From the NCBI GenBank assembly GCA_963815215.1, contig CAWFFU010000011.1, positions 480,001 to 544,000 on the forward strand: a stretch of 64,000 bases of DNA. Reading direction: 5' to 3'. The position numbers were made by a program, and so were the translations under genes. A model generated the notes under the pieces. It had not been told where the DNA came from, did no database searches, and saw nothing but the letters and a program-made list of their open reading frames with translations. This document shows positions 8,381 through 44,325 of this stretch, piece after piece; the stretch's first letter is position 1, and each line of letters opens with the position of its first letter. The DNA comes from an uncultured Trueperaceae bacterium. Lineage in GTDB: Bacteria; Deinococcota; Deinococci; Deinococcales; Trueperaceae.

Positions 8381-8387
8381 GTGAGCT

Positions 8388-9500: not shown

Positions 9501-9518
9501 GCCACCATCATAGGCGGC

Positions 9519-10064: not shown

Positions 10065-10116
10065 GCCACCTCCTCCGGATCCCCCGAAGGTCGGGATGCC
10101 GCGCCGGGCACCCCGC

Positions 10117-17356: not shown

Positions 17357-17381
17357 CGACACAACCTCCCCAACCGCCTCA

Positions 17382-17585
17382 ACGCTAGGGAGCGGGGTGG
17401 GGGCAGGCCAAGGGCTAAACGTCCCCCACGACATCGCTGCGCTCTGGCGGGGCGGCAAGGAGGCCGTGGCGGAGGCGGTCGGGCGGGGTCGCCCGGGACC
17501 CGGCGGACGCCGAGGCGCAACTCGGTTCCCACCAGTCCCGCTAGGACATTCTTACCTGTACCCGGCTCGCGGCCGCACCTAGCAT
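17382..17585. promoter_or_regulatory. Divergent psr/hyp promoters, each with a DosR-box-like site
   Basis: Minus: GGGACGTTTAGCCC (17425-17412), 24 nt, TAGCGT; plus: AGGACATTCTTACC (17543-17556), 23 nt, TAGCAT. Confidence 0.5.
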
Positions 17586-27232: not shown

Positions 27233-27432
27233 GAGGACCTCCTTCCAACTGCCACGCCCACCTTACACCCCGACCCCCACGCGCCTCCGGGGGGCGGAAG
27301 TATGGCCCTGGGCGAGCGGCAGCGGTCGTGGTACACTTCCGTTTGCGTTTCGAACCCAAGGGGAACTCGTGCCACGCCGCATCCGAACGTGGCCCGATCC
27401 CTACGGGACCACGAGTTGACCCTGGAGGCAAG

Positions 27433-29538
<2,106 letters not shown>

Positions 29539-29560
29539 GCCGACGCGCGAGTCGGAGCTT

Positions 29561-29591
29561 CACCGGGGCGGCGCTTGGCGCCGCCCCGGTG
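29561..29591. terminator. Hairpin after hppA, possibly bidirectional terminator
   Basis: CACCGGGGCGGCGC-TTG-GCGCCGCCCCGGTG perfect 14-bp stem. Confidence 0.7.
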
Positions 29592-29760
29592 TCCGTGAGG
29601 TCACCGCGCGAACGACCGGCAACGGCCGCGCGCCGTCGCGCGGATCACCGGCACGACGCGGCGAACGGTAGGATCCCGGTCGACCTGGTTGCAGGCAAGG
29701 TTGGTGGGGTGGAGGTGAGACTCGAGGGGTGGGTCACCGTAACCTCGAGCGGCGCAACTT
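29561..29760 (-). ncRNA. Candidate small RNA with C-rich anti-SD-like tract
   Basis: Perfect TATAAT on minus strand at 29770-29765, CTCGAGG/CCTCGAG stem, CUCACCUCCACCCCACC tract, terminal hairpin. Confidence 0.35.
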
Positions 29761-29839
29761 TCCAATTATAGCGCAACCCCGCCCGCCACACCAGGACACC
29801 GCACCCCAAACGCGGAAGGCGCTAGGACTATCATCGAGT

Positions 29840-29980
29840 CGGAAGGAGGTCTAAACCATAGAGGCAAAAGACCACTTCTCGAAGAGCAACCCTCGGCCCA
29901 CTAGAGGCTCGACCGAGTAACTCCTCAGACGGAGGAGCACCGACAGAGCAGAACAAGGCGATCGAGGGTTGCTCTCATCT
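29840..29980 (-). ncRNA. Candidate structured RNA (rod-like stem plus anti-SD tract), family not recognised
   Basis: 13-bp AGAGCAACCCTCG/CGAGGGTTGCTCT stem enclosing GCTC/GAGC and CTCCTC/GAGGAG stems; G-U pairs favour the minus strand. Confidence 0.35.
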
Positions 29981-30168
29981 CAGAACAGGGAAGCTGCGGC
30001 CCCACCCGGACGGGTGCGGGCCTTTCGGTTGCTCCCGGCGCGCCCCTGGCATACCCCGAAGCGCGCGCTCCCGTGCGGCGCCGAGGTGTACCGGACCCGA
30101 GAGCGCCCCACGAACAGAATCCCCTGGGCAGACGCCGGCCTCTCGGCCGAGGCCCGGCAGGTCCGCCA

Positions 30169-30211
30169 TGGACATTCGTCCTTGCCGGGCCGTGCGGCCC
30201 CCTGTTACAAC
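30169..30211 (+). promoter_or_regulatory. DosR-box-like site plus weak -10 (ferredoxin)
   Basis: TGGACATTCGTCCT (30169-30182), 23 nt, TACAAC. Confidence 0.4.
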
Positions 30212-30364
30212 TCCGATGTGAGGGTCCGACATCGCCCGTCGCACACCCTCCGAACTGCTACGCTGGAGTCAGGCGCACCGTCAGGCGCACCGTCTGGCAC
30301 TCAGCGTCTGGCACACCGCGCGAAAGGCCGCATGCGCTTCGGTGCGGCCCGGAGAGGAAGCTCG

Positions 30365-30601
30365 ATGGCATACGTGATCGCTGAGCCCTGTATTGGCGTC
30401 AAGGACGCGTCCTGCGTGGACGTCTGCCCTGTTGAGTGCATCTACGAAGCCGAGGACCAGTTCTACATCCATCCCGAGGAATGCATCGACTGCGGCGCCT
30501 GCGTCCCGGCCTGCCCGGTCGACGCCATCTTCCCCGAGATCGACGTGCCGGACGAGTGGTCGTCCTTCACGGAGAAGAACGTCAAGCTCTCCGGCCTCTG
30601 A
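30365..30601 (+). CDS. Seven-iron ([3Fe-4S][4Fe-4S]) ferredoxin
   Basis: MAYVIAEPCIGVKDASCVDVCPVECI...CIDCGACVPACPVDAI. Confidence 0.95.
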   Translation: MAYVIAEPCIGVKDASCVDVCPVECIYEAEDQFYIHPEECIDCGACVPACPVDAIFPEIDVPDEWSSFTEKNVKLSGL

Positions 30602-30764
30602 GCACCTCCCCGAGGCCGAGCAGGCCCTGAGCGCCGCCCACGCCTTGCGTGGGCGGCGCGTTCCGTTGCACTGGGTGGGGTTCGCCGCGCCGAGCGTCCT
30701 TCCCGCCGCCCTACCCGGCACCTCGCACAGCACGCACCGGAGCGCCAGCACGAGCGTCTCCGAC

Positions 30765-30807
30765 AGGACATTCGCACCTTCCCCAGGTCGGACCGGGCGG
30801 CGATACT
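30765..30807 (+). promoter_or_regulatory. DosR-box-like site plus -10 (USP-baeRF-ATPase operon)
   Basis: AGGACATTCGCACC (30765-30778), 23 nt, GATACT. Confidence 0.45.
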
Positions 30808-30855
30808 GGACTCGCCGTCGGGTGTAGCGCCGTCGGCGACCGCGAGGAGGCGGCG

Positions 30856-31320
30856 ATGGAGTTCAGGCGCATCCTGGTACCGGTCGATGGGAGTCCCTGC
30901 AGCGACCGCGCGGTGCAAGAGGCGATCGCGCTCGGGCGCGTGTTCGGCAGCAACCTCACGTTCCTCTCCGTCGTCGATAACCCTTTGCGGGGCCTCTACG
31001 GCTACTCGGAGGGGATCGGCTACTACGGGGATGTGTTCGAAGCCCTAGAGCGCACTTCCGCCGCCGCGCTGGAGCGGGGCGCAACCGCCGCCCATGCCGC
31101 GGGCCTCGAGGCCCAGACGCGACTGGTGCGGGAACGACCCCCCGTCGACGCGATCCTCGAGGCCGAGCCGGACTGCGATCTCACGGTGCTCGGAACCCAC
31201 GGGCGCCATGGGGTCGACCGCGTATTCCTCGGCTCCGTGACCGAAGGTGTGCTGCGCCGTTCGCGGAAGCCCCATCTCGTCGTGCGCTGCGGTGGAGAGC
31301 GAGAACGAGCCCAGGACTGA
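30856..31320 (+). CDS. Universal stress protein
   Basis: RILVPVDGS...GTHGRHGVDRVFLGSVTE; SD GAGGAGG. Confidence 0.92.
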   Translation: MEFRRILVPVDGSPCSDRAVQEAIALGRVFGSNLTFLSVVDNPLRGLYGYSEGIGYYGDVFEALERTSAAALERGATAAHAAGLEAQTRLVRERPPVDAILEAEPDCDLTVLGTHGRHGVDRVFLGSVTEGVLRRSRKPHLVVRCGGERERAQD

Positions 31321-31344
31321 ACCGTTGCCAAGGAGGTCGATGGC

Positions 31345-32505
31345 ATGATCGGCACGGATAGGATTCGCGCGCTCCAAACGGAAGTCGCCACTCACTCGGC
31401 CCCCATCCTCTCGCTCTACCTGGACGTCAACCCTGCGCGGCCGGAGAACGCTCGCAAAGCCTACGCTCTGAGGGCGCGCGCCGCCATGGATCGGCTCGGC
31501 CTCGACAAACGCTACACCCGGGAGATCGTCGCCAGGCTGCGCCAGGACCACGGCATGCCCGATGCCCGCACGCTGGTGGTGTTCGCCGGCGACGAGCCAG
31601 GGGAGTTCTTCGAGAGCTACGCCATCCGACCCGAGATCGCGCTCGTCGAGGCGAACGAAGGGGTGGTGGCGCGCTGGGGCGAGCCCTACGTGGCCCCACT
31701 GCTGCTGACCGTGCAGGAGAAACGTCGCTACCTGACGCTGCTGTTGGCGACCGACCGCGTACGCCTGTTCGAGCTCTACCTCGACGAGGTCGTCGAGCTC
31801 GACGCCTTGGTGCAGCCGCTCGACGACAGCGACTGGCGACCGCTGCGCGAGCATTCCACCGGCGCGCCCGGCGTGCCGGCTCGCGGGGGATCTGGCAAGG
31901 ACCTCTACGACAAACGGGTCGCCGACTGGCGTAGGCGCTTCCATCTCGAGGCAGCACGCCACCTCGAGCGTACGGTCGAGGCGCTCGGCGGCGGCACCCG
32001 CCTCATCCTGATGGGTCAGGGCCCTGAGGTGAACGCCTTCGAGGGCATCCTTCCTTCGGCGCTGCAGGAGCTGGTGGTGGGGCGGCTAGCCGCCCCTGCC
32101 AACGCCGACGCCACCGCGGCCGAGCTCGGGCCGCAGTTCACCGCGGCGTTGGAGGCGATCGAGACCGCCGCGGAGATCGCGGTGCTCGACCGCATCCAGG
32201 AGAAGGGTGTCTGGGGCTTCGACACCACCCTCGACGCCGTCGGTGAGGGGCGGATCTACCTGCTGGCCGTCCCCTGGCGCATGCGCGCCAGGGTGTTCCA
32301 GTGCGGCGAAGGCGACCGCGTCACGGCGAGCCACAGCGAAGCCTCGCGCCTCTACCCCGGCGAGACGATCCACGAGACCGCCCTCGCCGACGTCCTGCCC
32401 GCGCTCATCACCCGCCAGAACTTGCAGCTCGCCGTCATGCACGGCGACAACGAGACGCGCCTCAACGAGGCCTTCGGCGGCCTGGCGGGTCTCGCCCGCT
32501 GGTAG
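31345..32505 (+). CDS. Bacterial aeRF1/Pelota-type release-factor homolog (baeRF), possible Balon-like hibernation factor
   Basis: ILSLYLDV start, TLVVFA, GEPYVAPL, RLILMG, C-terminal GGLAGLARW; no GGQ (RGGSG in the equivalent loop). Confidence 0.75.
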   Translation: MIGTDRIRALQTEVATHSAPILSLYLDVNPARPENARKAYALRARAAMDRLGLDKRYTREIVARLRQDHGMPDARTLVVFAGDEPGEFFESYAIRPEIALVEANEGVVARWGEPYVAPLLLTVQEKRRYLTLLLATDRVRLFELYLDEVVELDALVQPLDDSDWRPLREHSTGAPGVPARGGSGKDLYDKRVADWRRRFHLEAARHLERTVEALGGGTRLILMGQGPEVNAFEGILPSALQELVVGRLAAPANADATAAELGPQFTAALEAIETAAEIAVLDRIQEKGVWGFDTTLDAVGEGRIYLLAVPWRMRARVFQCGEGDRVTASHSEASRLYPGETIHETALADVLPALITRQNLQLAVMHGDNETRLNEAFGGLAGLARW

Positions 32506-32509
32506 GCCC

Positions 32510-32860
32510 GTGTCAGAGACCGATCGCGCGCAAGAGGTCGTTCGCCGCCTACTCGATGCCGAGAAGAGCGCCCACGCACGCCTGGCGGAGGCAGAGGAGC
32601 GGGCCCGTCAACGGCTCGCGAGCGCCCGGCAGGAAGCCGAGCGCCAGCGCGCCCAGGCGCAGGAACGCGCGACGAGCGAACGGCATGCCGCGCTGGCCTC
32701 GGCACGCAACGATGCCGAAGCGGAGGCGGCCGCGCTCGTCGCCGCCGAGCAGGACCGGTGGCAGCGGATCGGGGATGCGGCTCACAGCCGAACGGACGCC
32801 GCCGTCGACGAGGTGGTCGCCTGGGTCTGCGCCGACGACGACGCGGAGCCGTTCCCATGA
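32510..32860 (+). CDS. V/A-type ATPase peripheral stalk subunit G/H-like
   Basis: Ala/Glu/Arg coiled coil, first in ATPase cluster, overlaps next gene. Confidence 0.65.
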   Translation: MSETDRAQEVVRRLLDAEKSAHARLAEAEERARQRLASARQEAERQRAQAQERATSERHAALASARNDAEAEAAALVAAEQDRWQRIGDAAHSRTDAAVDEVVAWVCADDDAEPFP

Positions 32861-33888
32861 TGGGGGTGCTCCGCCACGCGGCCTCCCACGCGCAGGTGCG
32901 CGCACGCCTTCCCGGACTGCTCCTCCCGTCCCAGTGGCAGGCGCTGCTCGAGGCACAGGACGTCGAAGGCATCGCCCGGCGCCTTCAAGGAGGCGCCTAC
33001 GGGAGCGGGCTCCCCGAGCAGCCCGCCGCCCTCGAGCGCCACCTCAAGGCGACGCTTGCCGAGGAGACGAGCACCGTGGCGACGTTCCAATGGGGTGCCA
33101 CCCGGGCGCTGCTCGCCACCTACGCGCGACGTTTCGAGCTGTCCAACCTCAAGACCGTCCTTCGCGCCCGCCACTACGGCATCCCCTGGGAACGGAGCGC
33201 GGTCGTGATGATCCCCCTGAAGCGCTCGGCGTTACCGTGGCGCGCGCTGCTCGAGGCGTCGTCCATGGAGGCCGTCGCGCGCATGCTCGAAGCGACGCCG
33301 TTCGCGAGGCCGCTGGTCACCGTCTTGGAACAGCAGGGGGATGCCGCTCCCTTCCGCTTCGAGGTCGCCCTCGACCTGGCCTACTTCCAGGAACTCGTGA
33401 GGCGCATCGAGCGCTTGACGGGCCGCGACGGCGAACGCGCCCGCACGTTCCTCGGCGATTGGATCGAGGTCGAGAACCTGTCCTGGGCCTTCCGCTACCG
33501 GCGGCTGGCCGGGCTCACGCCCGAGGAGACGGTCAACTACACGCTGCACCGGGCCTTCGGAGCGGGGCTCGACGCGGTGAGGCGGGTGGTGATGGGGAGC
33601 ACCGTCGCCGAGGAGGCGGCCCGCCTCGGGTACGTGATCGACGACGACGCTCCGGAGGACGAGGCGCTCGCCGCCCTGGAGCGGACCGCCGGACAACAGC
33701 GCGCCGAGGCGGCCCTCCGCGTGTTCCTGGGAGCGCCGTTCGACGTGGGCGCTCCCCTGGCGTTGCTCACCCTGCGCGAGACCGAGGTGCTCGACCTGAT
33801 CACGCTGATCGAGGGCGTCGCGGCGGGCCTGAGCAAGGGCGCGCTGGCCACCCGCTTCCTGGGACCGTTGCGCCACGGAGAGGCCTGA
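32857..33888 (+). CDS. V/A-type ATPase subunit C (d)
   Basis: AQVRAR, ELSNLKTVLR, EVALDLAYF, IEVENL. Confidence 0.85.
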   Translation: MMGVLRHAASHAQVRARLPGLLLPSQWQALLEAQDVEGIARRLQGGAYGSGLPEQPAALERHLKATLAEETSTVATFQWGATRALLATYARRFELSNLKTVLRARHYGIPWERSAVVMIPLKRSALPWRALLEASSMEAVARMLEATPFARPLVTVLEQQGDAAPFRFEVALDLAYFQELVRRIERLTGRDGERARTFLGDWIEVENLSWAFRYRRLAGLTPEETVNYTLHRAFGAGLDAVRRVVMGSTVAEEAARLGYVIDDDAPEDEALAALERTAGQQRAEAALRVFLGAPFDVGAPLALLTLRETEVLDLITLIEGVAAGLSKGALATRFLGPLRHGEA

Positions 33889-33892
33889 CCCC

Positions 33893-35794
33893 GTGCTCGC
33901 GCCCGAACGGCTCCAGGAAGTGAGCATCTTCGTTCTCGAGCGCGACGTGGAGATCGTCACCAACGTCCTGCTCCACGCCGAGTCCCTCCACCTCGAGGAC
34001 GTCGAGACCGAGTCCCTGGAACCGAAGCGCCACTGGGCGGAGACCGCCGATCGGGCGCTGGCCCTGGCGCGCCGTGCCGGTCAGGTGCTCGAGCTCCTCG
34101 ACATCGAACCGCTGACGCAGGCGCCGACCGAACCCGTGCGCCCCGGCGACGAGCTCGACCTCATGGAAGCCCAGCTCGTCCTGGCCGAGACACGCGTCGC
34201 TTCCTGGCGCGCGCGCGCGGACCGGAGCCGGCGCGAGCTGGAGTCGCTGGCGCTGACGCGGTCCCAACTCGAGCTGCTCGAGCCGCTGCGCGTGCCCGTC
34301 GAAGCGCTGGGGGAGCTGCGGCAACACCACGTCGTCGTCGGAACGATGCCGGCGGAGAACCTGACTCGCGTCGCCGAGGCGCTCTTCACCGTGTCGTTCG
34401 TGATCGCGCCGGTGCAGGTGCGCGCCGGACGCGCACTGGTGGTAGCGGCCAGCACGCGTCAGGACGCCGCCATCCTGGACCGGGCACTGCGCAGCGCCTT
34501 CTTCGAACCGATCCCCCTTCCCGCCGACGCGCGTGGTCATCCGGAGGAGGCGCTGGCGGCGCTCGATCGGCGCGCGGAGCTTGCCCGGGCGAGCGACAGC
34601 GAGCTCCGTGCCGAACGCGCCCGCCTCGCCGGCGCGCTGCGAGACACCCTCGTTCCACTGGAAGCGCGTCTGCGCGCTGCGTCGATCGTGGCCGAGGCGA
34701 TCCGGCGCTTCCCCGGACGCGGTGAGGTGTACCTGATCGCGGGCTGGGTCCCCGAGCGCAGGGTGGAGGCCCTCGGCAGCGAGCTCCGGGCCGCCGCCGA
34801 CGCGCCCATCGTGCTCCAGGCGGCGCCGCCTGCCGGCACGCGCCAGGGCGTGCCCACGCTGCTCAGCGCACCTGCCTGGTTACGGCCATTCCGGATCCTG
34901 GTCACCACCTTCGGCCTCTCGGGCTACCGCGAGATCGACCCCACGTTACCGGCGGCGGCGACCTTCGTACTGATGTACGGGATGATGTTCGGAGACGTCG
35001 GGCACGGCCTGCTCCTGGCGGCGGCCGGCGCCTTGCTGGGCAGGCGCGTCGGTCCCATGGCGCGCATCATCACCGTGGCGGGTGTGAGCGGTGCCCTGTT
35101 CGGCGTGCTCTACGGGACCGTGTTCGGCGCCCCGCTGTTCCCTCCCCTGTGGCTGCGCCCCATGGACCGCATCCAGGACCTGCTCCTGGCGTCCATCGCC
35201 GCCGGCGTGGTGGTCCTCAACCTCGGCTTCGGCCTCAACCTGCTCACGCGGGCCCGCGCCCACGATCTCCTCGCGCTCGTGCTGGACAGGAACGGTATCG
35301 TCGGGATCCTGCTGTACTGGACGCTCATCGGAGGCACCGCCCTGAGCCTCCTCGGTCGGCTCGACATCCGTGTTGTGCTCGTGACGCTGGCCCCGTTGGC
35401 GTTGCTGCTGTGGCTCAAGGAGCCGATCCAGGAGTGGCTCCGGGGACGGCCCGTGGGGCCCATCGGCGACACCCTCGTGACGGGCTTCTTCGAGCTCTTC
35501 GAGACGGTGCTCGGCTACGCCAGCAACAGCCTCTCCTTCGTGCGCCTGGGGGCTTTCGCGGTGGCCCACGAGGGGCTCTCCGCGATGGTGCTGCGCTACT
35601 CAGGGGGGCCGGCGGGCTGGATCGTGCTGGTCCTGGGGACCGCGCTGATCGTGGGCTTCGAGGGGCTGGTGGTGGGGATCCAGGCCTTGCGCCTGGAGTA
35701 CTTCGAGTTCTTCGGTCGTTTCTTCAGGGGCGACGGCACTCCCTTCGTCCCGTTGACGTTCCAGGGAGGTCGCGATGCTCGCATTCACGCCTAG
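33893..35794 (+). CDS. V/A-type ATPase subunit I (a)
   Basis: GWVP, YREIDPT, YGMMFGDVGHG, NSLSFVRL essential Arg, LRLEYFEFFGRF. Confidence 0.92.
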   Translation: MLAPERLQEVSIFVLERDVEIVTNVLLHAESLHLEDVETESLEPKRHWAETADRALALARRAGQVLELLDIEPLTQAPTEPVRPGDELDLMEAQLVLAETRVASWRARADRSRRELESLALTRSQLELLEPLRVPVEALGELRQHHVVVGTMPAENLTRVAEALFTVSFVIAPVQVRAGRALVVAASTRQDAAILDRALRSAFFEPIPLPADARGHPEEALAALDRRAELARASDSELRAERARLAGALRDTLVPLEARLRAASIVAEAIRRFPGRGEVYLIAGWVPERRVEALGSELRAAADAPIVLQAAPPAGTRQGVPTLLSAPAWLRPFRILVTTFGLSGYREIDPTLPAAATFVLMYGMMFGDVGHGLLLAAAGALLGRRVGPMARIITVAGVSGALFGVLYGTVFGAPLFPPLWLRPMDRIQDLLLASIAAGVVVLNLGFGLNLLTRARAHDLLALVLDRNGIVGILLYWTLIGGTALSLLGRLDIRVVLVTLAPLALLLWLKEPIQEWLRGRPVGPIGDTLVTGFFELFETVLGYASNSLSFVRLGAFAVAHEGLSAMVLRYSGGPAGWIVLVLGTALIVGFEGLVVGIQALRLEYFEFFGRFFRGDGTPFVPLTFQGGRDARIHA

Positions 35795-36122
35795 GGCCTG
35801 CAGGTCCTTCGTCCTTCGGTTGCTCGTCGTGCTGGCGGCGGGTGCGGGATCCACGCTGGCAGCGGCCCAGACGGCCCCGCAGAGCCCTGTCGAGGCGGTT
35901 CAGGCCGTCACTCAGGGCAATCCCTTCCTGGCCGCCGCCATCGCCACCGGTCTCGCCGCCATCGGAGCGGGCATCGCCGTCGGGATCGCCGGGGCCGCGG
36001 CCATCGGCGCGATCGCCGAGAAGCCCGAGCTGCTCGGCCGGAGCCTGATCTTCGTCGGGCTGGCCGAGGGCATCGTCATCTACGGGTTGATCATCTCGTT
36101 CATCATCCTCGGGACGGGGTGA
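35775..36122 (+). CDS. V/A-type ATPase proteolipid subunit K (c), single hairpin with N-terminal extension
   Basis: GAAAIGAIAEKP, LAEGIVIYG ion-binding Glu. Confidence 0.92.
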   Translation: MLAFTPRACRSFVLRLLVVLAAGAGSTLAAAQTAPQSPVEAVQAVTQGNPFLAAAIATGLAAIGAGIAVGIAGAAAIGAIAEKPELLGRSLIFVGLAEGIVIYGLIISFIILGTG

Positions 36123-36448
36123 GCGCCGTGGCCGGCGCGCGCGGGCTCACGGTCATCGGGGGCGCCGATGTCGTCCTCGGCCTCGGGCTGCTCGGTATCG
36201 ACGGGGTCGTCGTCTCCGACGCGACGCAGGCCCGCGTTGCACTGGCACGAGCCCTGGCCGATCGCGACACCGCGCTGGTGCTGGTGGACGAGGCCTGGGT
36301 CGAGGACCTGCGCGACACCGTGGAGGCGGTCGCCCAGGAGTCCGCGAGCCCGTTGGTGGTCGAGATCCCCAGCGCGATCGGAGCCGACGCGGCGCTTACC
36401 CTGCACCTGAGGGTCGAACGCGCACTCGGCTTCAAGTTGAGGGAGTGA
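36119..36448 (+). CDS. V/A-type ATPase subunit F
   Basis: VIGGADVVLGLGLLGI, PLVVEIP, ERALG. Confidence 0.85.
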   Translation: MSAVAGARGLTVIGGADVVLGLGLLGIDGVVVSDATQARVALARALADRDTALVLVDEAWVEDLRDTVEAVAQESASPLVVEIPSAIGADAALTLHLRVERALGFKLRE

Positions 36449-37095
36449 GGATCGGCATGTTGGACGTGCGCGGGGACCTGGAAGCGCTGGTCGCGGAGGC
36501 TCATCGGCGGGTGGAGCAGAATGCCCTCGACAAGGAGGCTTCGGCCGACCGACGCTCCGCCGAAGCGCTGGACGAGGCGCGGAACGCCGTCGCCGCGATC
36601 CTCCACGATCACCGCGAGCGCACGAGGACCGAGGCCTCCGAAGCCCGCGCGCACGTGCTGGCGCTCGGGGAGATGCGCTCGAAGCGGGTCGCTCTGGAGC
36701 AACGCGAAGCACTGCTCGACGCCGTCTGGAGCGCCGCCACGGCGCGCCTCGAGGAGCTCCCCGACGACGGCCGCAGGTACCTCGCCACGCTCCGCCGACT
36801 CGCCGCGCTGGCCGCCCGGAACCTCCGCGCGGCCGAGGTCGAGCTCTCCTCCGAGGTGCGCGGCCACGACCTCCTGACGCCCGAGCGGCTCGAGGCCTGG
36901 GGCGCCGAGGACGATGTGCACTATCGACGTGCGGCCGCTCCCGTTGCGATGATGGGCGGCCTCATGGCCAGCGCCGGCCGGCTCCGAGTCGATTCCAGTT
37001 TCGATACCCGACTCCAGATCGCCCGGGAGGAGCTGCGTGAGGTCGCCACCGCGCGGCTCCTGGGAAGCGACGTCGTAGCGGGAGCGGAGCGTTGA
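36445..37095 (+). CDS. V/A-type ATPase subunit E
   Basis: N-terminal coiled coil, MGGL...VDSSFDTRL; position before subunit A. Confidence 0.8.
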   Translation: MRIGMLDVRGDLEALVAEAHRRVEQNALDKEASADRRSAEALDEARNAVAAILHDHRERTRTEASEARAHVLALGEMRSKRVALEQREALLDAVWSAATARLEELPDDGRRYLATLRRLAALAARNLRAAEVELSSEVRGHDLLTPERLEAWGAEDDVHYRRAAAPVAMMGGLMASAGRLRVDSSFDTRLQIAREELREVATARLLGSDVVAGAER

Positions 37096-37099
37096 CGCC

Positions 37100-38908
37100 G
37101 TGAGGCAGGTCGGTACCGTGACCTGGATCAGCGGACCGGTCGTCAAGGCGCGGCTGACGGCGCCGGTCGGGCTGATGGAGCAAGTCTGGGTCGGCACCCT
37201 CGGGCTGGCGGGCGAGGTCATCGCGCGTGAACACGATCTCGCGACGGTGCAGGTGTACGAGGAGACGGACGGCGTCCGGCCCGGCGAACCCGTGCGGTCC
37301 GACGGGCACCCGCTCGAGGTGGCCCTGGGACCGGGCCTGCTTGGCCAGGTCTACGACGGCCTTCAACGTCCGCTCGAGAGGTTGCTTGAGAGCGGTCCCG
37401 GCATCGAGCGCGGGGCCCACGCCGAACCCCTCCCGGATCGAACGTGGCCGTTCGTGGCGCGCGCCGTCGAGGGCGCCGACCTCCACCCCGGCTCCGTGCT
37501 GGGCGTCGTGCAGGAGACTCCGCTGATCGAGCATCGGGTACTCGTTCCGCCCGGCCTCGAGGGCCGGCTCGAGTGGATCGCCGACGACGGTCAGGTGGCC
37601 CGCGACCAGGTGATGGCCCGGCTCCGCAGCGACGCCGACGGCGAGGTGCACGAGCTGACGCTGGTGCAACGCTGGCCCGTCAGGGTGGCACGTCCGGCGC
37701 GGAGGAGGCTAGAGTCCCACCGGCCCCTGGTGACGGGGCAACGCGTGCTCGACACCTTCTACCCCGTCGCGCGCGGCGGCGCGGTGGCCCTGCCAGGACC
37801 GTTCGGCGCCGGCAAGACCATCCTGCAGCACAGTCTCGCCAAATGGTGCGACGCCCAGGTGATCGTCTACGTGGGGTGCGGCGAACGCGGCAACGAGATC
37901 GCCCAGGTGCTCACCGAGTTCCCCAGCCTGCTCGATCCCGCCTCCGGCCGGCCACTGCTGGAGCGGACGATCCTGATCGCCAACACCTCGAACATGCCTG
38001 TGGCCGCGCGCGAGGCCAGCATCTACACGGGGCTGGCGATGGCCGAGTACTACCGCGACATGGGCTACAGCGTCGCGTTGATGGCCGACTCGACCAGTCG
38101 CTGGGCCGAGGCCCTCAGGGAGATCGCGGGGCGGCTCGAGGAGATGCCGGCCGAGGAGGGCTACCCTGCCTACCTGCCCAGTCGGCTGGCCGCCTTCTAC
38201 GAGCGCGCCGGCGTGGTGGAAACGCTCTCGGGCGAGTCCGGCTCCGTCACCATCATCGGTGCCGTCAGCCCTCCGGGCGGCGACTTCACCGAGCCGGTAA
38301 CCCAGCACACCCAGCGCTTCACGCGGGCGCTCTGGGCCCTCAGCCGCGATCTCGCCGGAGCCCGTCACTACCCGGCCATCAGTTGGGAGAACAGCTACAG
38401 CTTCTATGTCGACGAGGTCGCCACCTGGTGGGATGCTGAGGGAAGCGAGGGCTGGACGGACCTGCGCCGCCGCGCCGTGTCCATCCTGGAGCAGGATGCG
38501 CGCCTCGAGCAGATCGTCAGGCTGGTCGGAAGCGAGGCGCTGCCCGACCGTCAGCGCTGGGTGCTGGAAGCGGCCCGGCTGCTCAAGGAAGGCTTCCTGC
38601 GCCAGAACGCCCTCCACCCCATCGACGCCACCTGCACGCCGAAGAAGCAGGCGATGCTGTTGGCCCTGTTCGTGCGGCTGTACGAACGCGGCCGTGACCT
38701 GATCGACGCCGGCGTGCCTCTCGTGCGGGTACGTTCCGCGATCGACGCCGGGCGCCTGCTCCGGCTCAAGGAGACCGTTCCAGGCGATGACCTGTCGCTC
38801 ATCGAGGCCGCTGAGAAGGAGATGGATGCCGCTCTGGTGGCGCTGCGTCCCACTCCGCCTGCGGCGAACGCGACCGAGGCCGCGTCGCCGGAAGGGGACG
38901 CGCCGTGA
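37100..38908 (+). CDS. V/A-type ATPase catalytic subunit A
   Basis: GPFGAGKT, GCGERGNE, ADSTSRWAEALRE, AVSPPGGDFTEPVT. Confidence 0.96.
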   Translation: MRQVGTVTWISGPVVKARLTAPVGLMEQVWVGTLGLAGEVIAREHDLATVQVYEETDGVRPGEPVRSDGHPLEVALGPGLLGQVYDGLQRPLERLLESGPGIERGAHAEPLPDRTWPFVARAVEGADLHPGSVLGVVQETPLIEHRVLVPPGLEGRLEWIADDGQVARDQVMARLRSDADGEVHELTLVQRWPVRVARPARRRLESHRPLVTGQRVLDTFYPVARGGAVALPGPFGAGKTILQHSLAKWCDAQVIVYVGCGERGNEIAQVLTEFPSLLDPASGRPLLERTILIANTSNMPVAAREASIYTGLAMAEYYRDMGYSVALMADSTSRWAEALREIAGRLEEMPAEEGYPAYLPSRLAAFYERAGVVETLSGESGSVTIIGAVSPPGGDFTEPVTQHTQRFTRALWALSRDLAGARHYPAISWENSYSFYVDEVATWWDAEGSEGWTDLRRRAVSILEQDARLEQIVRLVGSEALPDRQRWVLEAARLLKEGFLRQNALHPIDATCTPKKQAMLLALFVRLYERGRDLIDAGVPLVRVRSAIDAGRLLRLKETVPGDDLSLIEAAEKEMDAALVALRPTPPAANATEAASPEGDAP

Positions 38909-40344
38909 GCGCCTCCGGCCGCTCGGGCCGGATCGAGCTGGTGGGCGCCGACCGCATCGAGGGTCCGCTCCTCCTGCTCGAGGGGTTCGGGAGGGCGGCC
39001 TACGGCGAAGTGGTCGAGGTCCACGGCGCCGGGCCGGTCCGCCTCGGCGAAGTGCTCGCCTCCTCGGAGGAATCCGCCGTGATCGAGTTGTGGGGCAACA
39101 CCGCCGGCATGACTCCCGAGTCGTTGAGCGTACGCTTCCGGGGCGAGACGCTGCACGCGCCGGTGGCCGAGGAGATGCTCGGGCGGGTGTTCGACGGGCT
39201 CGGTCGGCCGCGTGACGGCCTGCCCCCTCCGATCGCGGAGCGCCGCGTCGACGTCCATGGGCGGCCCATCAATCCCGCAGCCCGCGCCTATCCGCGCGAT
39301 CCCATCGAGACCGGCGTGTCGGCGATCGACCTGATGAACACCCTGGTACGCGGGCAGAAGCTCCCGCTGCTGTCGGGGTCGGGGTTGCCCCACAACGAGC
39401 TGGCGGCGCAGATCGCCCTGCAGGCCCGGGTCGCCGACGAGCGCGAGCGCTTCGCCGTGGTGTTCGTTGCGCTGGGAAGCTCGCACGACACCGCTGCGTT
39501 CTTCCGCCAGCAGTTCGAGGACTCCGGCCTGCTGGCCCGCACGGCCCTGTTCCTCAACCTGGCCGACGACGCACCGATGGAGCGCATCGTCACGCCCCGC
39601 GTGGCGCTGTCGCTGGCCGAGCACCTGGCCTTCGAGCACGACTACCACGTCCTCGCTCTCCTGACGGACATGACCAACTACGCCGAGGCCCTCCGCGAGC
39701 TCTCCGCTCGCAAGAACGAGGTACCCGGTCGAAAGGGCTACCCCGGCTACCTCTACACCGACCTGGCGTCGATCTACGAGCGCTGCGGCCGCATCAAGGG
39801 CAGGAAGGGGTCGCTCACCCAGATCCCCATCCTGACGATGCCGGGCGACGACATCACCCACCCCGTGCCCGACCTCACCGGCTACATCACCGAGGGCCAG
39901 GTGGTGCTCGACCGGGCGCTCCACCGGGCCGAGGTCTACCCGCCGGTGGACGTCATGCTGTCGCTGTCGCGGCTGATGAAGGACGGCATCGGCGAGGGAC
40001 GCACGCGCGCCGATCACGTCGGACTCGCTGCGCAACTCTATGCGGCCTACGCCCGGGTCCGGGAGGTCCGCAATCTGGCGACCGTGATCGGCGATGCGGC
40101 GCTGGCGACGGTCGACCGCATGTACCTAGAGTTCGGAGAGCGCTTCGAGCACGACGTCCTGCGGCAGGGGTCGAGCGAGATCCGCGCGTTCGACGATAGC
40201 CTCGATCGCGGCTGGGCCGCGCTCTCGGTGCTGCCCATGGACGAGCTCACGCGCGTCGGCGCGGAGGATCTGCGGAACCACTACGGTGGCCGCCCGCCGG
40301 CCGCCGAGGCGACCCCGCCTGTTGCGCCTGAGGAAGCCCGATGA
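38905..40344 (+). CDS. V/A-type ATPase subunit B
   Basis: RGQKLP..SGSGLPHN, DMTNYAEALRE, GYPGYLYTDL, PDLTGYITEGQ. Confidence 0.96.
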   Translation: MSASGRSGRIELVGADRIEGPLLLLEGFGRAAYGEVVEVHGAGPVRLGEVLASSEESAVIELWGNTAGMTPESLSVRFRGETLHAPVAEEMLGRVFDGLGRPRDGLPPPIAERRVDVHGRPINPAARAYPRDPIETGVSAIDLMNTLVRGQKLPLLSGSGLPHNELAAQIALQARVADERERFAVVFVALGSSHDTAAFFRQQFEDSGLLARTALFLNLADDAPMERIVTPRVALSLAEHLAFEHDYHVLALLTDMTNYAEALRELSARKNEVPGRKGYPGYLYTDLASIYERCGRIKGRKGSLTQIPILTMPGDDITHPVPDLTGYITEGQVVLDRALHRAEVYPPVDVMLSLSRLMKDGIGEGRTRADHVGLAAQLYAAYARVREVRNLATVIGDAALATVDRMYLEFGERFEHDVLRQGSSEIRAFDDSLDRGWAALSVLPMDELTRVGAEDLRNHYGGRPPAAEATPPVAPEEAR

Positions 40345-40985
40345 GCGGCGGCCACGGCGCCGCGGGCGGGCCTCCGACCCGGGCCAGGCTCCTCGAGCTG
40401 CGCCGCAGACTCGAGGAAGCGCGCGCGGGCCACGCCATGCTCGAGCGCAAGCGTGAGGTGCTGCTGCGCGAGGTCTGGAGCCTGCTCCGCGAGCTCGGGC
40501 ACGTGGAGCGCGACGTGCGGCGCCGCTTCGGAACCGCCTACGCCGCCCTGCGCGAAGCGCGGCTGGCCATGGGTAGCGAAGGGCTGGCATGGGCGGCGCT
40601 GGCGCCGGCCGCACGCAGCACGTGCGTCACAGAAGCTCGCTCGGTGATGGGGGTGACCCTCCCGCTGGTGCATGTGACCGTCACGGCCCTGCCTCTTCCC
40701 TACAGCCCATTCGGCACCAGCGTGACCATGGACCGGGCGCGGCAGCGCTGGCTCGAAGTCGGGGAGGTGCTGGGCGCGTGGGCCGAGACCTACAGCTCGG
40801 TGTGGCGGGCGAGTGCGGAGCTGGCGAGAACCCAGCGCCGCGTCAACGCCCTCGAGAAGCTGCTCATCCCCGACTACGAGGTCGCCATCCACGCCATCGA
40901 AGAGGCGCTCGAGGAGCAGGAGCGCGCGACCTTCCTGCGCGGCAAACGTGTCAAGGAGCGGAAGGAGGCCGAAGGTGAACGATAG
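40341..40985 (+). CDS. V/A-type ATPase subunit D
   Basis: PTRARLLEL, GHAMLERKR, TQRRVNALE, LEEQER. Confidence 0.92.
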   Translation: MSGGHGAAGGPPTRARLLELRRRLEEARAGHAMLERKREVLLREVWSLLRELGHVERDVRRRFGTAYAALREARLAMGSEGLAWAALAPAARSTCVTEARSVMGVTLPLVHVTVTALPLPYSPFGTSVTMDRARQRWLEVGEVLGAWAETYSSVWRASAELARTQRRVNALEKLLIPDYEVAIHAIEEALEEQERATFLRGKRVKERKEAEGER

Positions 40986-41457
40986 CGTGTTCAGCAAGAT
41001 CCTGGTGCCGACGGACGGCTCCGAAGGCTCGATCCAGGCCGCGCGCCTGGCCCTCGACATGCTCCGCGGGAGCTCCGGTCGGCTGGCGCTCCTGTTCGTC
41101 GTGGACACCGCGGTGCTCAGCGAGCTGCGGCGTTTCGGGGAGCAGACCGAGGCGGAGGTGGAGAGCGAGCTGCACGAGCACGGCAAGCGCTACCTCGATC
41201 TCCTCGTGGAGGAAGCGAAGGCCGGCGGCATCGGCGCCGAGACGTTCCTCAGGGAGGGTGACCCGTTCGCGGAGATCGTGGCGCTCGCCCGCGACATCGG
41301 CGCCGACCTGATCGCCATGGGCCATGTAGGCCAGCGCGGCACGCGCCGCGTGCTGCTCGGCTCGGTCACGCAGCGCGTGCTCGACTTCGCTCACTGCCCG
41401 GTGCTGGTCGTCAAGCACGAGACGACCGAGCACGTACCATGGGGGACGAACCCATGA
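40975..41457 (+). CDS. Universal stress protein
   Basis: KILVPTDGS...MGHVG..LLGSVTQRV..CPVLVVK; overlaps subunit D stop. Confidence 0.92.
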   Translation: MNDSVFSKILVPTDGSEGSIQAARLALDMLRGSSGRLALLFVVDTAVLSELRRFGEQTEAEVESELHEHGKRYLDLLVEEAKAGGIGAETFLREGDPFAEIVALARDIGADLIAMGHVGQRGTRRVLLGSVTQRVLDFAHCPVLVVKHETTEHVPWGTNP

Positions 41458-41909
41458 GCTCCCGACCCGATCTGACCTTCGACAGGGACGAGGCCCTGGA
41501 CGCGCTGGTCGCCGCCTTCGAACGCGGCGACACGCCGTCGGAGGGGTTCTCTCACCAGGCGCACCTCGCGGTCGCGCTGGCCTACCTGGATCGACAAGGG
41601 CTGGCCCGTGCCACCCGCTCCATGCGGACGGGCCTGTTGAGCTTCCTGGAGCACGCCTTCGGCGATCGCGCCGCCGCGGAGGTGAAGTACCGCGAGACCG
41701 TCACGGTCTTCTGGCTGCGCCTGCTCGCCGCCGAACTCGCCGCGACCGACGCCTCGCGCCCTCTCCATGAACGCGTCAACCCGCTGCTGGCCCGCTATCG
41801 CGACGCCTCGACCATCCACAGCTATTACTCCCAGGAGCGCCTGGAGAGCGACGAGGCCCGTAGGTCCTTCGTCGAGCCCGACCTCAAACCGTTGCCGCCC
41901 CTGCTGTGA
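41454..41909 (+). CDS. Hypothetical protein
   Basis: ATGA overlap with USP; globular composition, FSHQAHL and YYSQERL...FVEPD motifs. Confidence 0.6.
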   Translation: MSSRPDLTFDRDEALDALVAAFERGDTPSEGFSHQAHLAVALAYLDRQGLARATRSMRTGLLSFLEHAFGDRAAAEVKYRETVTVFWLRLLAAELAATDASRPLHERVNPLLARYRDASTIHSYYSQERLESDEARRSFVEPDLKPLPPLL

Positions 41910-42044
41910 GCCTGCGGGGCCTTCGGCGATCCGCCCCGGCAACCGGCGCACGGGCGCGCGCTCGCTATGATGAACGTCGTTCGCAAGGGCCCATGGGCTG
42001 TTCCCGTCGATCGCCCAGGGGATCGGCAGCGGGAGGGGATCATC

Positions 42045-42998
42045 GTGTCGCAGGGACGCATCGCCGTGTTCGGGAGTCTCAACGTCGATCTGGTCACACG
42101 GCTCGAGCGCTTCCCGAGCCCGGGTGAGACCGTGTCGGCACGCGACTTCACCCTGTACCCGGGAGGCAAGGGGGCCAACCAGGCGGTCGCCGCCGGCAAG
42201 CTGGGCGCCGACGTCGCCATGTACGGCCTGCTGGGCTCCGACGCGCTGGCCGATCGGCTCCGCGACTCGTTGCGCGCGGCCGGCGTCGACGATGGCGCCG
42301 TGCGGGCCGTCGAGGACGTGGCCACCGGTACGGCGGACATCTGGGTGGAAGACAGTGGCGAGAACATGATCGCCATCGCCGCCGGCGCGAACGGCCGGGT
42401 CGATGCCGGCTACGTGGACGAGCACATGGCCGGCCTGGCGAGCGCGGCCTATCTGCTGCTCCAGCTCGAGGTGCCGCTGCCGGCGCTGGCGCACCTGCTG
42501 CACATGTTGCCGTCGAGCGGCGGGCCCCGCGTCGTGCTCGATCCGGCTCCCGCGCGCCCGCTCGAGGCGCTCCCGCTGGACCGCGTGTGGATGGTCACCC
42601 CCAACGAGCACGAGCTCGCCCGCCTCACCGGCATGCCGACGGGCGACCCGCCGGCGATCCGCGATGCGGCCCGGGCCTTGGCCGCGCGTACGGGCGTCGA
42701 GCTGGTGTTGACCAAAGCCGGAGCGCGCGGCGCCTTCGTGAGTGCGGGCGAGCGCTTCGAGACGGTGCCCGCGTTCCCGGTGGACGCCGTCGACACCACC
42801 GCCGCCGGCGACGCCTTCAACGGCGCGCTGGCCGCGGCCCTGGCGCGTTCGGCCACCGTGCGCGACGACCTCATGCAGGCGATCCGCTTCGCCCACGCGG
42901 CCGCCGCGATCGCCGTGACGGGCGCGGGCGCGCAGCCGGCCATGGCCGATCGCGCGGAGGTCGAACGTTTCCTGCAACGACATGGAGGTCCGGCATGA
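42045..42998 (+). CDS. rbsK: Ribokinase
   Basis: GSLNVDL, GGKGANQA, PNEHE, DTTAAGDAFNG. Confidence 0.92.
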   Translation: MSQGRIAVFGSLNVDLVTRLERFPSPGETVSARDFTLYPGGKGANQAVAAGKLGADVAMYGLLGSDALADRLRDSLRAAGVDDGAVRAVEDVATGTADIWVEDSGENMIAIAAGANGRVDAGYVDEHMAGLASAAYLLLQLEVPLPALAHLLHMLPSSGGPRVVLDPAPARPLEALPLDRVWMVTPNEHELARLTGMPTGDPPAIRDAARALAARTGVELVLTKAGARGAFVSAGERFETVPAFPVDAVDTTAAGDAFNGALAAALARSATVRDDLMQAIRFAHAAAAIAVTGAGAQPAMADRAEVERFLQRHGGPA

Positions 42999-43390
42999 AG
43001 AAACACGGCATCCTGAACGCCTCGTTGAGTGAGCTGATCGCCACGCTCGGCCACACCGATCAGCTGGTGGTCGCCGACTGCGGCCTGCCGGTGCCGCCGG
43101 AAGTGCCGGTCGTCGACCTCGCCCTGGTACAGGGCATCCCGCGCTTCAGCGAGGTGCTGGCAGCGCTGGCCGACGAGATCGTGGTGCAACGGTTGACGGT
43201 CGCCGAGGAGGCCGTGCGGCACAACCCTGATGCCCTCGAGGCGGTGCGGGCCGCCTTCCCGGACGTGCCTCTCGACCGCGTTCCGCACGAGCAGCTCAAG
43301 CAGGAGCTGCCGGCCGTGAAGGCCGTGGTGCGCACCGGCGAGGCGACTCCCTTCGCCAACGTCATCCTGGAGTGCGGCGCCGCCTTCTGA
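42995..43390 (+). CDS. rbsD: D-ribose pyranase
   Basis: MKKHGILN, LGHTD, ADCGLP, RTGEATPFANV. Confidence 0.93.
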   Translation: MKKHGILNASLSELIATLGHTDQLVVADCGLPVPPEVPVVDLALVQGIPRFSEVLAALADEIVVQRLTVAEEAVRHNPDALEAVRAAFPDVPLDRVPHEQLKQELPAVKAVVRTGEATPFANVILECGAAF

Positions 43391-43486
43391 GCCGCGTCCC
43401 TCTCAGACGCCGCTCATCTATTTCCGTGTGGAACGGTGTTCAGCTTGGCTTCAGCTAGCGGGGGCATGCTTGCCTCGGTGATAGCC

Positions 43487-44188
43487 ATGAAGAGAACCCT
43501 GATCCTTCTGTTCACACTACTCGCCCTCGGCACCTCCGCCCTCGCCGCCTCGCTGCCCAGCAGCGGGACCGTCACCGTCAAGAACGATTCCGGCATCCAG
43601 GTGGGAACCGGGACCATCGCCAACGGCAAGCTGTCGCTCTCGCTCGCCAGCGGCACCAGCGGCTTCGTGACGATCACGGTCACAAGCGCCAACGGCAGCA
43701 GCCAGAGCTACGAGGCGATGGTCAAGGCCGGCGGCCAGGTCACGGTCGTGAACAGCGGCCAGCTCAGCGACCTGTCGAGCTTCGCCAAGACCGGCGGCGT
43801 GGACAGCGTCGACGTCAGCGAGACCACGGAGAGCCAGACACCGGAGAGCCAGACCTCCCAGACCGGGCAGCAGGAGAGCCCGGACAGCGCCACCACCACC
43901 GGCCCGGAGGACACGACGTCGCAGGCCGGCAGCGCCAGCAGCCAACCGTCGAGCAGCAAAGGCAGCAGCGCCTCGTCGTCCGGAAGCGGCCCCGCCACCA
44001 ACGCTTCGAGCGACAACAGCCCCGATACCAGCGCTTCCCAGGACAGCCAGACCGAGACGGGGAGCTCCAGCGGCGACGATCAGGTGAAGGTCGGCGCCAA
44101 TCTGAGCGGCGGGGCCAGCACCCACACCGGCTCGGACGGGACCTCCACCGACTCCAGCGCCAGCGGTTCCGCCTCCACCGACGACTGA
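43487..44188 (+). CDS. Secreted Ser/Thr-rich hypothetical protein
   Basis: Signal peptide MKRTLILLFTLLALGTSALA, small beta-rich domain, low-complexity S/T/D tail. Confidence 0.7.
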   Translation: MKRTLILLFTLLALGTSALAASLPSSGTVTVKNDSGIQVGTGTIANGKLSLSLASGTSGFVTITVTSANGSSQSYEAMVKAGGQVTVVNSGQLSDLSSFAKTGGVDSVDVSETTESQTPESQTSQTGQQESPDSATTTGPEDTTSQAGSASSQPSSSKGSSASSSGSGPATNASSDNSPDTSASQDSQTETGSSSGDDQVKVGANLSGGASTHTGSDGTSTDSSASGSASTDD

Positions 44189-44325
44189 CCTACCTCAAGC
44201 CTAGGGCCCGCCCGGCGGCGGTCCCCCCGGGAGCCGCACCTCCCGAGCCCGCGAGCGCCGCGTCCGGATCCCGGACGCGGCGCTCGCTCGTCCTCGACCC
44301 ACGGGACGATGACGGCGTCATCCGC

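Follow-up and report, generated by a model that had tools for sequence, protein, structure and literature searches.

We analyzed a 64,000-nucleotide stretch of the genome of an uncultured Trueperaceae bacterium of soil or sediment (contig CAWFFU010000011.1, positions 480,001 to 544,000; hereafter the window), which carries, at window positions 30856-41909 and entirely on the plus strand, a compact 13-gene operon for a V/A-type rotary ATPase. By Pfam assignment its order is USP1-baeRF-G-C-I-K-F-E-A-B-D-USP2-hypothetical, i.e., the ATPase subunits are bracketed by two universal stress proteins (USPs) and preceded by a homolog of the release factor aeRF1 (baeRF) that resembles Balon (Table 1). 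Every gene claimed in a preliminary description of the locus was found again, and the order and tight spacing noted there (gaps of 24 nt or less) were borne out: the successive junctions from USP1 to the hypothetical gene measure 24, 4, -4, 4, -20, -4, -4, 4, -4, -4, 1, and -19 nt, with the start of G refined to the GTG at 32510 and that of USP2 to the GTG at 40987, 1 nt past the D stop. The hypothetical protein matched no Pfam or NCBIfam family and, in the protein atlas, returned unnamed clusters only. The pfkB gene that follows it may or may not be co-transcribed with the operon; pfkB lies near the hypothetical gene in just one other locus (L097, ∼150 nt) and 2.5-3.3 kb off in two more (L098 and L101). 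A simple scan of 29500-44500 found no plus-strand terminator-like site inside the operon, a weak test at the ∼70% G+C of the window, and no sigma-70-like promoter, a result that is uninformative at that composition. Because the full gene order was seen again in 11 other species-level genomes, the arrangement is not a product of chance. The operon is apparently one transcript, predicted to be co-expressed from one regulated promoter.

Table 1. Features of the ATPase operon and of its surroundings (window coordinates).
Feature	Position	Strand	Evidence or remark
USP-USP-HisKA_3 histidine kinase-NarL/LuxR response regulator operon	7736-10653	-	Pfam; NarL-type regulator at 7736-8458
Polysulfide/thiosulfate-reductase-like set	13055-17458	-	Molybdopterin, 4Fe-4S, and NrfD membrane subunits, NarJ/TorD-like chaperone; rhodanese nearby
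Second operator copy, AGGACATTCTTACCT	17543-17557	+	Ahead of the HycI-HypA-HypB-HypF-HypC-HypD operon
Membrane H+-pyrophosphatase	27328-29538	+	Pfam H_PPase, 903 bits; conserved upstream neighbor, outside the operon
4Fe-4S ferredoxin	29969-30601	+	Pfam Fer4; immediate upstream neighbor in 12/12 USP1-headed loci tested
Candidate 15-nt operator, AGGACATTCGCACCT	30765-30779	+	Abuts a weak -35
-10-like hexamer, GATACT	30802-30807	+	Fixed distance from the operator
USP1, universal stress protein, 154 aa	30856-31320	+	Pfam Usp, E 2e-29
baeRF, Balon-like aeRF1 homolog (baeRF family 10), 386 aa	31345-32505	+	Pfam PF18854, 81.7 bits (cut-off 27.1)
G/H, peripheral-stalk subunit, 116 aa	32510-32860	+	Pfam V-ATPase_G, E 3e-6, 28.0 bits, marginally below the 28.6 cut-off
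Subunit C (d), 343 aa	32857-33888	+	Pfam vATP-synt_AC39, E 2e-44; diagnostic marker of the accessory clade
Subunit I (a), 633 aa	33893-35794	+	Pfam V_ATPase_I
Proteolipid subunit K (c), 115 aa	35775-36122	+	Pfam ATP-synt_C; one hairpin, N-terminus signal-like
Subunit F, 109 aa	36119-36448	+	Pfam ATP-synt_F, E 9e-17
Subunit E, 216 aa	36445-37095	+	Pfam vATP-synt_E, E 1e-9
Catalytic subunit A, 602 aa	37100-38908	+	Pfam and NCBIfam V-type subunit A, 794 bits
Subunit B, 479 aa	38905-40344	+	Pfam ATP-synt_ab and ATP-synt_VA_C
Central-stalk subunit D, 214 aa	40341-40985	+	Pfam ATP-synt_D, E 8e-45
USP2, trailing USP, 156 aa	40987-41457	+	Pfam Usp, E 1e-31
Conserved hypothetical protein, 156 aa	41439-41909	+	Present after USP2 in genera g1 and g7 only
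pfkB-family sugar kinase	41967-42998	+	Pfam PfkB, E 1e-58; 57 nt downstream of the operon

Alignment of the regions upstream of 12 USP1-headed loci revealed a shared stretch, ..GTCTnnGAnAGGACATTCGCACCT.., that contains the candidate operator, exact in 11 loci and with one mismatch in the twelfth (L084). From the end of the operator to the ATACT of the -10-like hexamer the distance is exactly 23 nt in all 12 regions, the sequence of the spacer having diverged. The 15-mer runs up to the expected start of a -35, itself a poor one, a layout that suggests an activator-dependent promoter. At 0-1 mismatch the 15-mer is unique in the genome; among its seven 2-mismatch sites, the one ahead of the hydrogenase maturation (hyp) operon is alone in being conserved and in having a correctly spaced -10. 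This second copy (..TTCTTACCT) is exact upstream of hycI-hypA-hypB in each of the 10 genomes of the genus and is followed by TAGCAT at 22-23 nt. The pattern AGGACATTCNNACCT occurs exactly twice in nine of those genomes and once in the tenth, the 87%-complete G334, and its reversed control gave 0 occurrences. Looser patterns yielded no further convincing sites within the window, and the motif was not found at the more distant accessory operons described below. Between the -10 and the start of USP1 (30808-30855), the 5′ leader contains a conserved block, ACTCGCCGTCGGGTG, and a CTCGC...GCGAG pairing in the leader might cover the GAGGAGG ribosome-binding site at its 5′ end; the leader of L004 has a matching CTCGCT...AGCGAG pair.

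The enzyme encoded by the operon appears to be complete, since all nine V/A subunits (A, B, D, F, C(d), E, G, I(a), and K(c)) were identified with Pfam, that of G marginally. Subunit A has the Walker A sequence GPFGAGKT, the Arg of subunit I within ..ALRLEYFEFF.. aligns with that of ..GARLQYVEFF.. in E. hirae NtpI, and the Glu of subunit K aligns with the Glu in the VETY stretch of E. hirae NtpK, so that the carboxylate is kept. The catalytic and ion-path residues look intact, and the enzyme is predicted to be competent.

It is one of three V/A-type ATPases in the genome, an assembly of 3.3 Mb in 14 contigs: a PF00006 search returned three A/B pairs and Rho, and no F-type pair. One of the other two operons (contig C3, 745-764 kb) has the canonical order G-I-K-E-C-F-A-B-D, and because its A subunit has a match, 72-84% identical, in each of the 60 other genomes among the 61 sampled from the phylum, it looks like the vertically inherited housekeeping enzyme. 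The suggestion that the window holds a second, accessory rotary ATPase with its genes in another order than in the housekeeping operon was thus right as to the order and to the existence of a separate canonical operon; it fell short as to number, since the genome holds three V/A operons rather than two. By BLAST, identity to the housekeeping copies is 52% for A, 51% for B, 48% for K, 28% for C, 28% for I, 30% for D, and 27% for F (the overall range being given as 26-52%), and neither E nor G matches its counterpart. These identities, together with the A-subunit tree (below), rule out a recent duplicate of the housekeeping operon. The window enzyme shares with the housekeeping V/A-ATPase of Thermus thermophilus and other Deinococcota (G-I-L(K)-E-C-F-A-B-D) the same nine subunit families, the Walker A of A, the a-subunit Arg, and a one-hairpin c subunit with its carboxylate Glu. 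It differs in its order, G-C-I-K-F-E-A-B-D, in which C stands ahead of I and F ahead of E, in its trailing USP, in a c subunit without the Gln and Thr carried by the housekeeping and Thermus c subunits, in its position outside the 11-row housekeeping clade of the tree, and in its distribution, which is patchy within the family, whereas the housekeeping enzyme is universal in the phylum. On these comparisons the window operon is accessory and is not the source of the cell's main ATP synthase.

The third V-type operon of the genome (C3:450400-457600; L002 6400-13612) has the order E-?-A-B-D-I-K, which we take to resemble that of the Chlamydia, spirochaete, and Bacteroidetes type. It encodes a double-hairpin c subunit of 156 aa, a 187-aa open reading frame without assignment stands ahead of its A gene, and its A subunit is 44% identical to that of the window.

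Subunit C proved diagnostic for relatives of the window enzyme. In the Trueperaceae, the accessory type was called at E ≤ 2.5e-31 and was present in 29 of 127 other genomes, a tally that takes in G325, flagged as unpublished, which has a weak match only; none of 236 genomes from the other families of the phylum had it, and the next-best matches (E 3e-14 or weaker) were housekeeping C subunits. It was also present in 24 of 301 sampled genomes of one class of Chloroflexota (E 1e-27 to 7e-50), and in all 13 Chloroflexota loci fetched the order was C-I-K-F-(E)-A-B-D, where E was often too diverged for tblastn and left a gap of ∼650-700 nt at the expected place. Outside the family, the best matches of the A subunit, 64-67% identical, were proteins named as Bryobacteraceae and Caldilineaceae. 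A tree of 46 A subunits, which the preliminary description had called for, was inferred by a quick IQ-TREE maximum-likelihood search (LG+C20 PMSF) with support from the Shimodaira-Hasegawa-like approximate likelihood ratio test (SH-aLRT); L085, L095, and L103 were left out for want of a long high-scoring segment pair and L105 and L129 because of a stop within it. The tree placed a 34-row accessory group (support 83) apart from the 11-row housekeeping clade (99), and within the former every Trueperaceae accessory row fell, together with the proteins from Caldilineaceae and Bryobacteraceae, into an inner 23-row cluster (99). Among the Chloroflexota carriers, F-type beta was full-length in four of the five genomes checked and a fragment in the fifth. 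Judged from sequence comparison, the accessory clade is laterally spread, and its hosts always have another rotary ATPase besides; it is marked by the order (G)-C-I-K-F-E-A-B-D, by an ATP-binding-type USP after D, and by the lack of Na+ ligands in the c subunit.

Two further observations were made on the more distant members. In the Chloroflexota locus L103 (9016-12165), accessory A and B match only as short pieces in different frames, which suggests frameshifts or decay, and no USP2 was detectable at that locus either. A gene of the phosphoenolpyruvate (PEP) synthase/pyruvate-phosphate-dikinase type is a recurrent neighbor of distant Trueperaceae accessory operons (L087 13355-15847, L089 13398-15806, L096 13623-16031, and L094 2067-4463), divergent upstream in three loci and beyond USP2 in one.

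The c subunit reads LAEGIVIYG around its carboxylate, from which H+ coupling had been proposed, and comparison with E. hirae NtpK agrees with that proposal. The Na+ ligands of NtpK, which we take to be an inner-helix Gln and a Thr/Ser beside the Glu, are replaced: Val stands at the Gln position of the GIAQG stretch, and Gly follows the Glu. These ligand positions are not kept in any of 33 accessory loci from the two phyla, across which the c subunit is near-invariant (FVGLAEG(I/V)(V/A)IYG, with FVGLAEG invariant in the 33 loci) and resembles eukaryotic H+ proteolipids at the same positions. At these positions the enzyme does not fit a Na+-translocating V-ATPase of the NtpK type, and H+ coupling is favored. 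The housekeeping c subunit (L001 14369-14683, minus strand) carries Q...PET at the Na+ positions, as does that of Thermus, versus V...AEG in the accessory c subunit, and the two enzymes may differ in ion handling.

In being accessory, mobile, co-resident with a housekeeping enzyme, patchy across phyla, and in having its own gene order, the window enzyme is like the N-ATPases (alternate F1F0), which are thought to be outward ion pumps. All of its subunits are V/A-type, however, whereas the N-ATPase is F-type (beta-epsilon-Q-R-a-c-b-alpha-gamma); it has no AtpQ or AtpR genes, its companion is a USP, and its c subunit lacks Na+ ligands. The likeness is therefore best treated as one of analogy, and the window enzyme is not a member of that family. 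The open-access literature that we searched contained no account of such an operon; the neighborhood supplements of PMC10901736 and PMC6514570, which lay outside that search, may list such contexts.

The two USPs had been described as bracketing the operon, and both are present, but they are not equivalent. Each fits the ATP-binding USP motif, which we take to be G-x2-G-x9-G-(S/T), USP1 with the stretch GTHGRHGVDRVFLGS and USP2 with GHVGQRGTRRVLLGS. In an alignment of 25 USP2 sequences the DGS, MGHVGxRG, and GSV stretches are kept, and the glycines of the motif are invariant (25/25). USP2 stands directly after D in all 17 Trueperaceae loci that reach past D, in four of four further loci from a first survey (some from the same genomes), and in 9 of the 13 Chloroflexota loci. 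USP1 heads the operon in genera g1, g7, and g8 only, and USP1 and baeRF together do so in the window's genus and in G247, from a second genus, only; ten more distant Trueperaceae operons have neither at the head and are preceded instead by a divergent PEP-utilizing enzyme, a ZIP transporter, or a nitroreductase. On its distribution USP2 is thus an old, cross-phylum companion of the ATPase clade, and USP1 and baeRF form a lineage-specific head. A complex prediction for D, F, and USP2 (alignments of 25 rows each) reached a best score of 0.22 against a mark of 0.32 and was informative neither way.

The baeRF gene is single-copy in the genome, which has an HPF gene elsewhere. An AlphaFold2 model (predicted local distance difference test 86.9, predicted template-modeling score 0.79) gave as its top Foldseek match M. 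smegmatis Msmeg1130 (Balon) on the ribosome (template-modeling score 0.70/0.72, E 1e-17), followed by archaeal aRF1, P. urativorans Balon, and Rv2629 (E 1e-17 to 1e-13 overall). A profile of 19 relatives searched against the Protein Data Bank (PDB) matched MSMEG_1130 over its full length (E 6.7e-21), aRF1 over the middle and C domains only (E 6e-10), and Rv2629 more weakly (E 6.5e-4). The earlier assignment to a Balon/Rv2629-type aeRF1 homolog therefore stands as to the aeRF1 fold, which the structure check it had proposed for this gene recovered, and as to the Balon type, but the nearest relative is MSMEG_1130 rather than Rv2629. Like Balon, MSMEG_1130, and Rv2629 (Helena-Bueno et al. 2024, PMC10901736), the protein has a three-domain aeRF1 architecture with neither NIKS nor, as the preliminary description had observed, GGQ in its sequence; it shares with MSMEG_1130 an N-terminal SLY..P and a C-terminal G.A..LRW motif, and like Balon it lies in a stress-type operon beside USPs. 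It differs from them in its low identity to the solved proteins (15-17%), in its loop, and in standing at the head of a rotary ATPase operon. It is best regarded as a distant relative of MSMEG_1130 and not as an equivalog.

The best Pfam match of baeRF is family 10, which Burroughs and Aravind (PMC6514570) single out as keeping a conserved, possibly catalytic, glutamine, and the same authors propose Dom34-like rescue for the inactive families; baeRF might accordingly be an active release or rescue factor, by peptidyl-tRNA hydrolysis or in the manner of Dom34, rather than a hibernation factor. Although baeRF passes the PF18854 threshold, its loop reads ARGGSGKD (GGS for GGQ), and because the Ser aligns with the Gln of the MSMEG_1130 AGQ, the family 10 glutamine has been lost here. 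The position is Ser in close relatives, and 18 of the 19 aligned relatives have no conserved Q. In the model, the lasso or GGQ loop is expected where residues 158-180 form a long, low-confidence loop predicted to be disordered, and the two mycobacterial proteins that match best by structure and by profile were solved on ribosomes, as hibernation factors. We thus regard an active factor as improbable and conclude from the model and alignments that baeRF is a Balon-like, MSMEG_1130-type protein with a predicted three-domain aeRF1 fold and a lost catalytic glutamine.

How closely baeRF is tied to the ATPase is a separate matter. A survey of synteny, which the preliminary description had proposed, supports conservation of the baeRF/USP linkage: the full order recurs as described above, and baeRF-G-C adjacency holds in 10 of 10 genomes of the genus (loci L003-L007 and L097-L102) and in G247. 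The baeRF head is nevertheless narrow, being confined to two genera, and baeRF is dispensable. G248, which belongs to a third genus, shares the promoter and USP1, but these lead straight into G-C-I... with no baeRF between; whether baeRF was lost from this genome or never present, the ATPase thus does without it. In G290 and G353, baeRF is sited elsewhere in the genome, and among 80 baeRF loci of reference genomes an ATPase lay beside it in only 5, those at least 64% identical. It is possible, then, that baeRF has no specific tie to the ATPase and merely landed in a convenient stress-induced operon whose products act independently, a reading we hold to be doubtful. Consistent with it, relatives 33-47% identical lie in other contexts, and Meiothermus and related Deinococcota loci (L026, L028, L031-L033, L038-L040, L043, and L045) have two USPs directly after baeRF homologs 33-38% identical, so that the baeRF-USP pairing is wider than the ATPase link. 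The neighborhoods reported for Balon are varied as well, and in the text of PMC10901736 the word ‘ATPase’ occurs 0 times. On the other side, the adjacency to G, with its 4-nt spacing, is retained in all 10 species-level genomes even though the baeRF proteins are 62-77% identical (one 95%), and the baeRF of the operon is the only copy in the genome. There is also a single case, at an unrelated locus (L049 9950-17676), of a complete N-type ATPase operon preceded at 24 nt by a gene of the Balon family (MSMEG_1130 model, E 1e-32). Since Balon genes are reported from many stress operons, the link may reflect shared timing only, and since it is limited to two genera, it is best read as shared timing and not as a required partnership.

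The N-type operon of L049 has the order beta-epsilon-gene1-AtpR-a-c-b-alpha-gamma, each subunit scoring above its NCBIfam cut-off, and a divergent OmpR-type regulator and kinase lie upstream. Its metagenome-assembled genome (G368) is labeled ‘uncultured Pleurocapsa sp.’, a cyanobacterial label seemingly at odds with the genome grouping, because the phylum sample of G368 has many genomes in common with the Chloroflexota class sample. The proximity of baeRF to an accessory ATPase as a general rule was rejected, L049 remaining a single case: the only other N-ATPase beta above cut-off among the 301 sampled genomes had no baeRF nearby (the beta subunit only, with the queries used), and no N-ATPase adjoins the relatives 48% identical in L048, L150, and L151.

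The ATPase operon belongs to a larger island. Eight of the nine USP domains of the genome fall within 489-556 kb of contig C11, six of them inside the window and two ∼10 kb past its end. In order, the island within the window comprises a two-component operon, flavodoxin and rhodanese, a polysulfide-reductase-like set, hycI-hypABFCD, a tandem USP with phosphoglucomutase, the H+-pyrophosphatase and ferredoxin, the ATPase operon, and pfkB. The polysulfide-reductase-like set is divergent from the hyp operon, and the intergenic region that they share contains the second operator. The H+-pyrophosphatase is upstream in L004-L007, L083, L084, and L101, i.e., in every USP1-headed locus that reaches far enough. 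The two-component operon combines a NarL-family regulator, a HisKA_3 kinase, and linked USPs, as in a regulon of the mycobacterial DosR type. Its regulator is 85-93% identical in eight of the nine other genomes of the genus, and in all six genomes that have both on one contig it lies 5-10 kb from the hyp operator; the system is a candidate regulator of the island that may bind the operator. In L096, from another genus, the genes immediately after USP2 encode a histidine kinase and a NarL-type regulator.

The gene content of the island is like that of the mycobacterial DosR (DevR) regulon, whose member list we take to include what the two would share, namely multiple USPs, a HisKA_3 kinase that is linked to a USP and accompanied by a NarL-type regulator, ferredoxin, pfkB, a homolog of Balon, and a link to hydrogenase. 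It is unlike that regulon in lying in a different phylum, in being clustered in one island, and in including a rotary ATPase and an H+-pyrophosphatase, and the operator, AGGACATTC(GC/TT)ACCT, is only loosely like what we take to be the DosR box consensus.

Taken together, these findings make it probable that the locus forms one regulated operon, which encodes a complete accessory V/A-ATPase of the proton type together with USP2 and a lineage-specific Balon-like head and has its operator in common with the hyp operon. Several observations weigh against this reading or its parts. The operator is not clearly palindromic, and its likeness to the mycobacterial DosR box is loose. The 20 read runs that contain window positions 30700-40699 are soil, sediment, or salt-marsh metagenome DNA or are unlabeled, and none of the 20 listed is an RNA run. 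The tree comes from a quick search with SH-aLRT only, and support for the accessory group as a whole is just 83. USP2 was not found after D in 4 of the 13 Chloroflexota loci. A single-sequence phmmer search of baeRF against the PDB gave 0 hits at E ≤ 1, and the NCBIfam MSMEG_1130 equivalog model gave 26.3 bits (E 3e-6) where its cut-off is 480. The linkage of baeRF, found in two genera, is missing from the 10 distant Trueperaceae loci, from L084, and from all 13 Chloroflexota loci, and G248, at 98% completeness, has no baeRF anywhere in its genome. The stress-operon contexts of Balon, as given in PMC10901736, are many and different and include RaiA, Hsp20, and OsmC. Finally, no sequence feature separates a pump from a synthase.

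We envision that, in one lineage of Trueperaceae, the ATPase operon, in which USP2 would be translationally coupled to subunit D, gained a new head consisting of an activator-type promoter with the 15-nt operator, a second USP, and the Balon-like factor. When oxygen or energy is low, the island regulator would turn on the ATPase and hyp operons; the accessory enzyme would hydrolyze ATP and so, during weak respiration, uphold the proton-motive force and the pH of the cytoplasm, or alternatively make ATP at low proton-motive force; USP2 would read the adenylate pool and gate the enzyme; and the Balon-like factor would occupy ribosomal A sites and park the ribosomes. In this scheme we infer which signal induces the operons, in which direction the enzyme runs, what the USPs do, that the factor binds ribosomes, and which regulator acts at the operator.

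The enzyme could instead be a condition-specific ATP synthase serving anaerobic or H2- or polysulfide-driven respiration at low proton-motive force, e.g., through another c-ring size or H+/ATP ratio. Its operator is common to hydrogenase maturation, the operon is near a Psr-like molybdoenzyme with NrfD and 4Fe-4S subunits, all stator and rotor parts are present, and the c subunit is strongly conserved and unlike the housekeeping one, all of which a synthase would accommodate. The clade, however, is always found alongside another full ATP synthase, and its companions are a USP and, in this genome, an H+-pyrophosphatase and a hibernation factor. Because of that company, which is suggestive only, maintenance fits better than growth, and we consider a condition-specific synthase unlikely.

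The maintenance role can be extended to a broader proposal, which we offer tentatively: USP2 would sense adenylates as a dedicated regulatory subunit of a laterally mobile accessory H+ V/A-ATPase, itself the equivalent among V/A enzymes of the N-ATPase, and the enzyme would be an ATP-driven keeper of proton-motive force in non-growing cells of several phyla. In Trueperaceae this module would have come, by way of a single operator and a DosR-like two-component system, under a dormancy program that switches on hydrogen metabolism, membrane energization, and Balon-mediated ribosome parking from the same signal.

These results bear on how non-growing bacteria stay membrane-energized while halting protein synthesis. 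The USP-tagged accessory clade, present in at least two phyla, offers a concrete candidate partner for the USPs, a family whose targets are mostly unknown, and points to a V/A analogue of the N-ATPase, and the island is a candidate Deinococcota counterpart to the mycobacterial DosR regulon. In this lineage an energy pump and a brake on protein synthesis appear to be switched on together, and because both functions lie on one predicted transcript behind one conserved operator, the link between energy and translation is directly testable.

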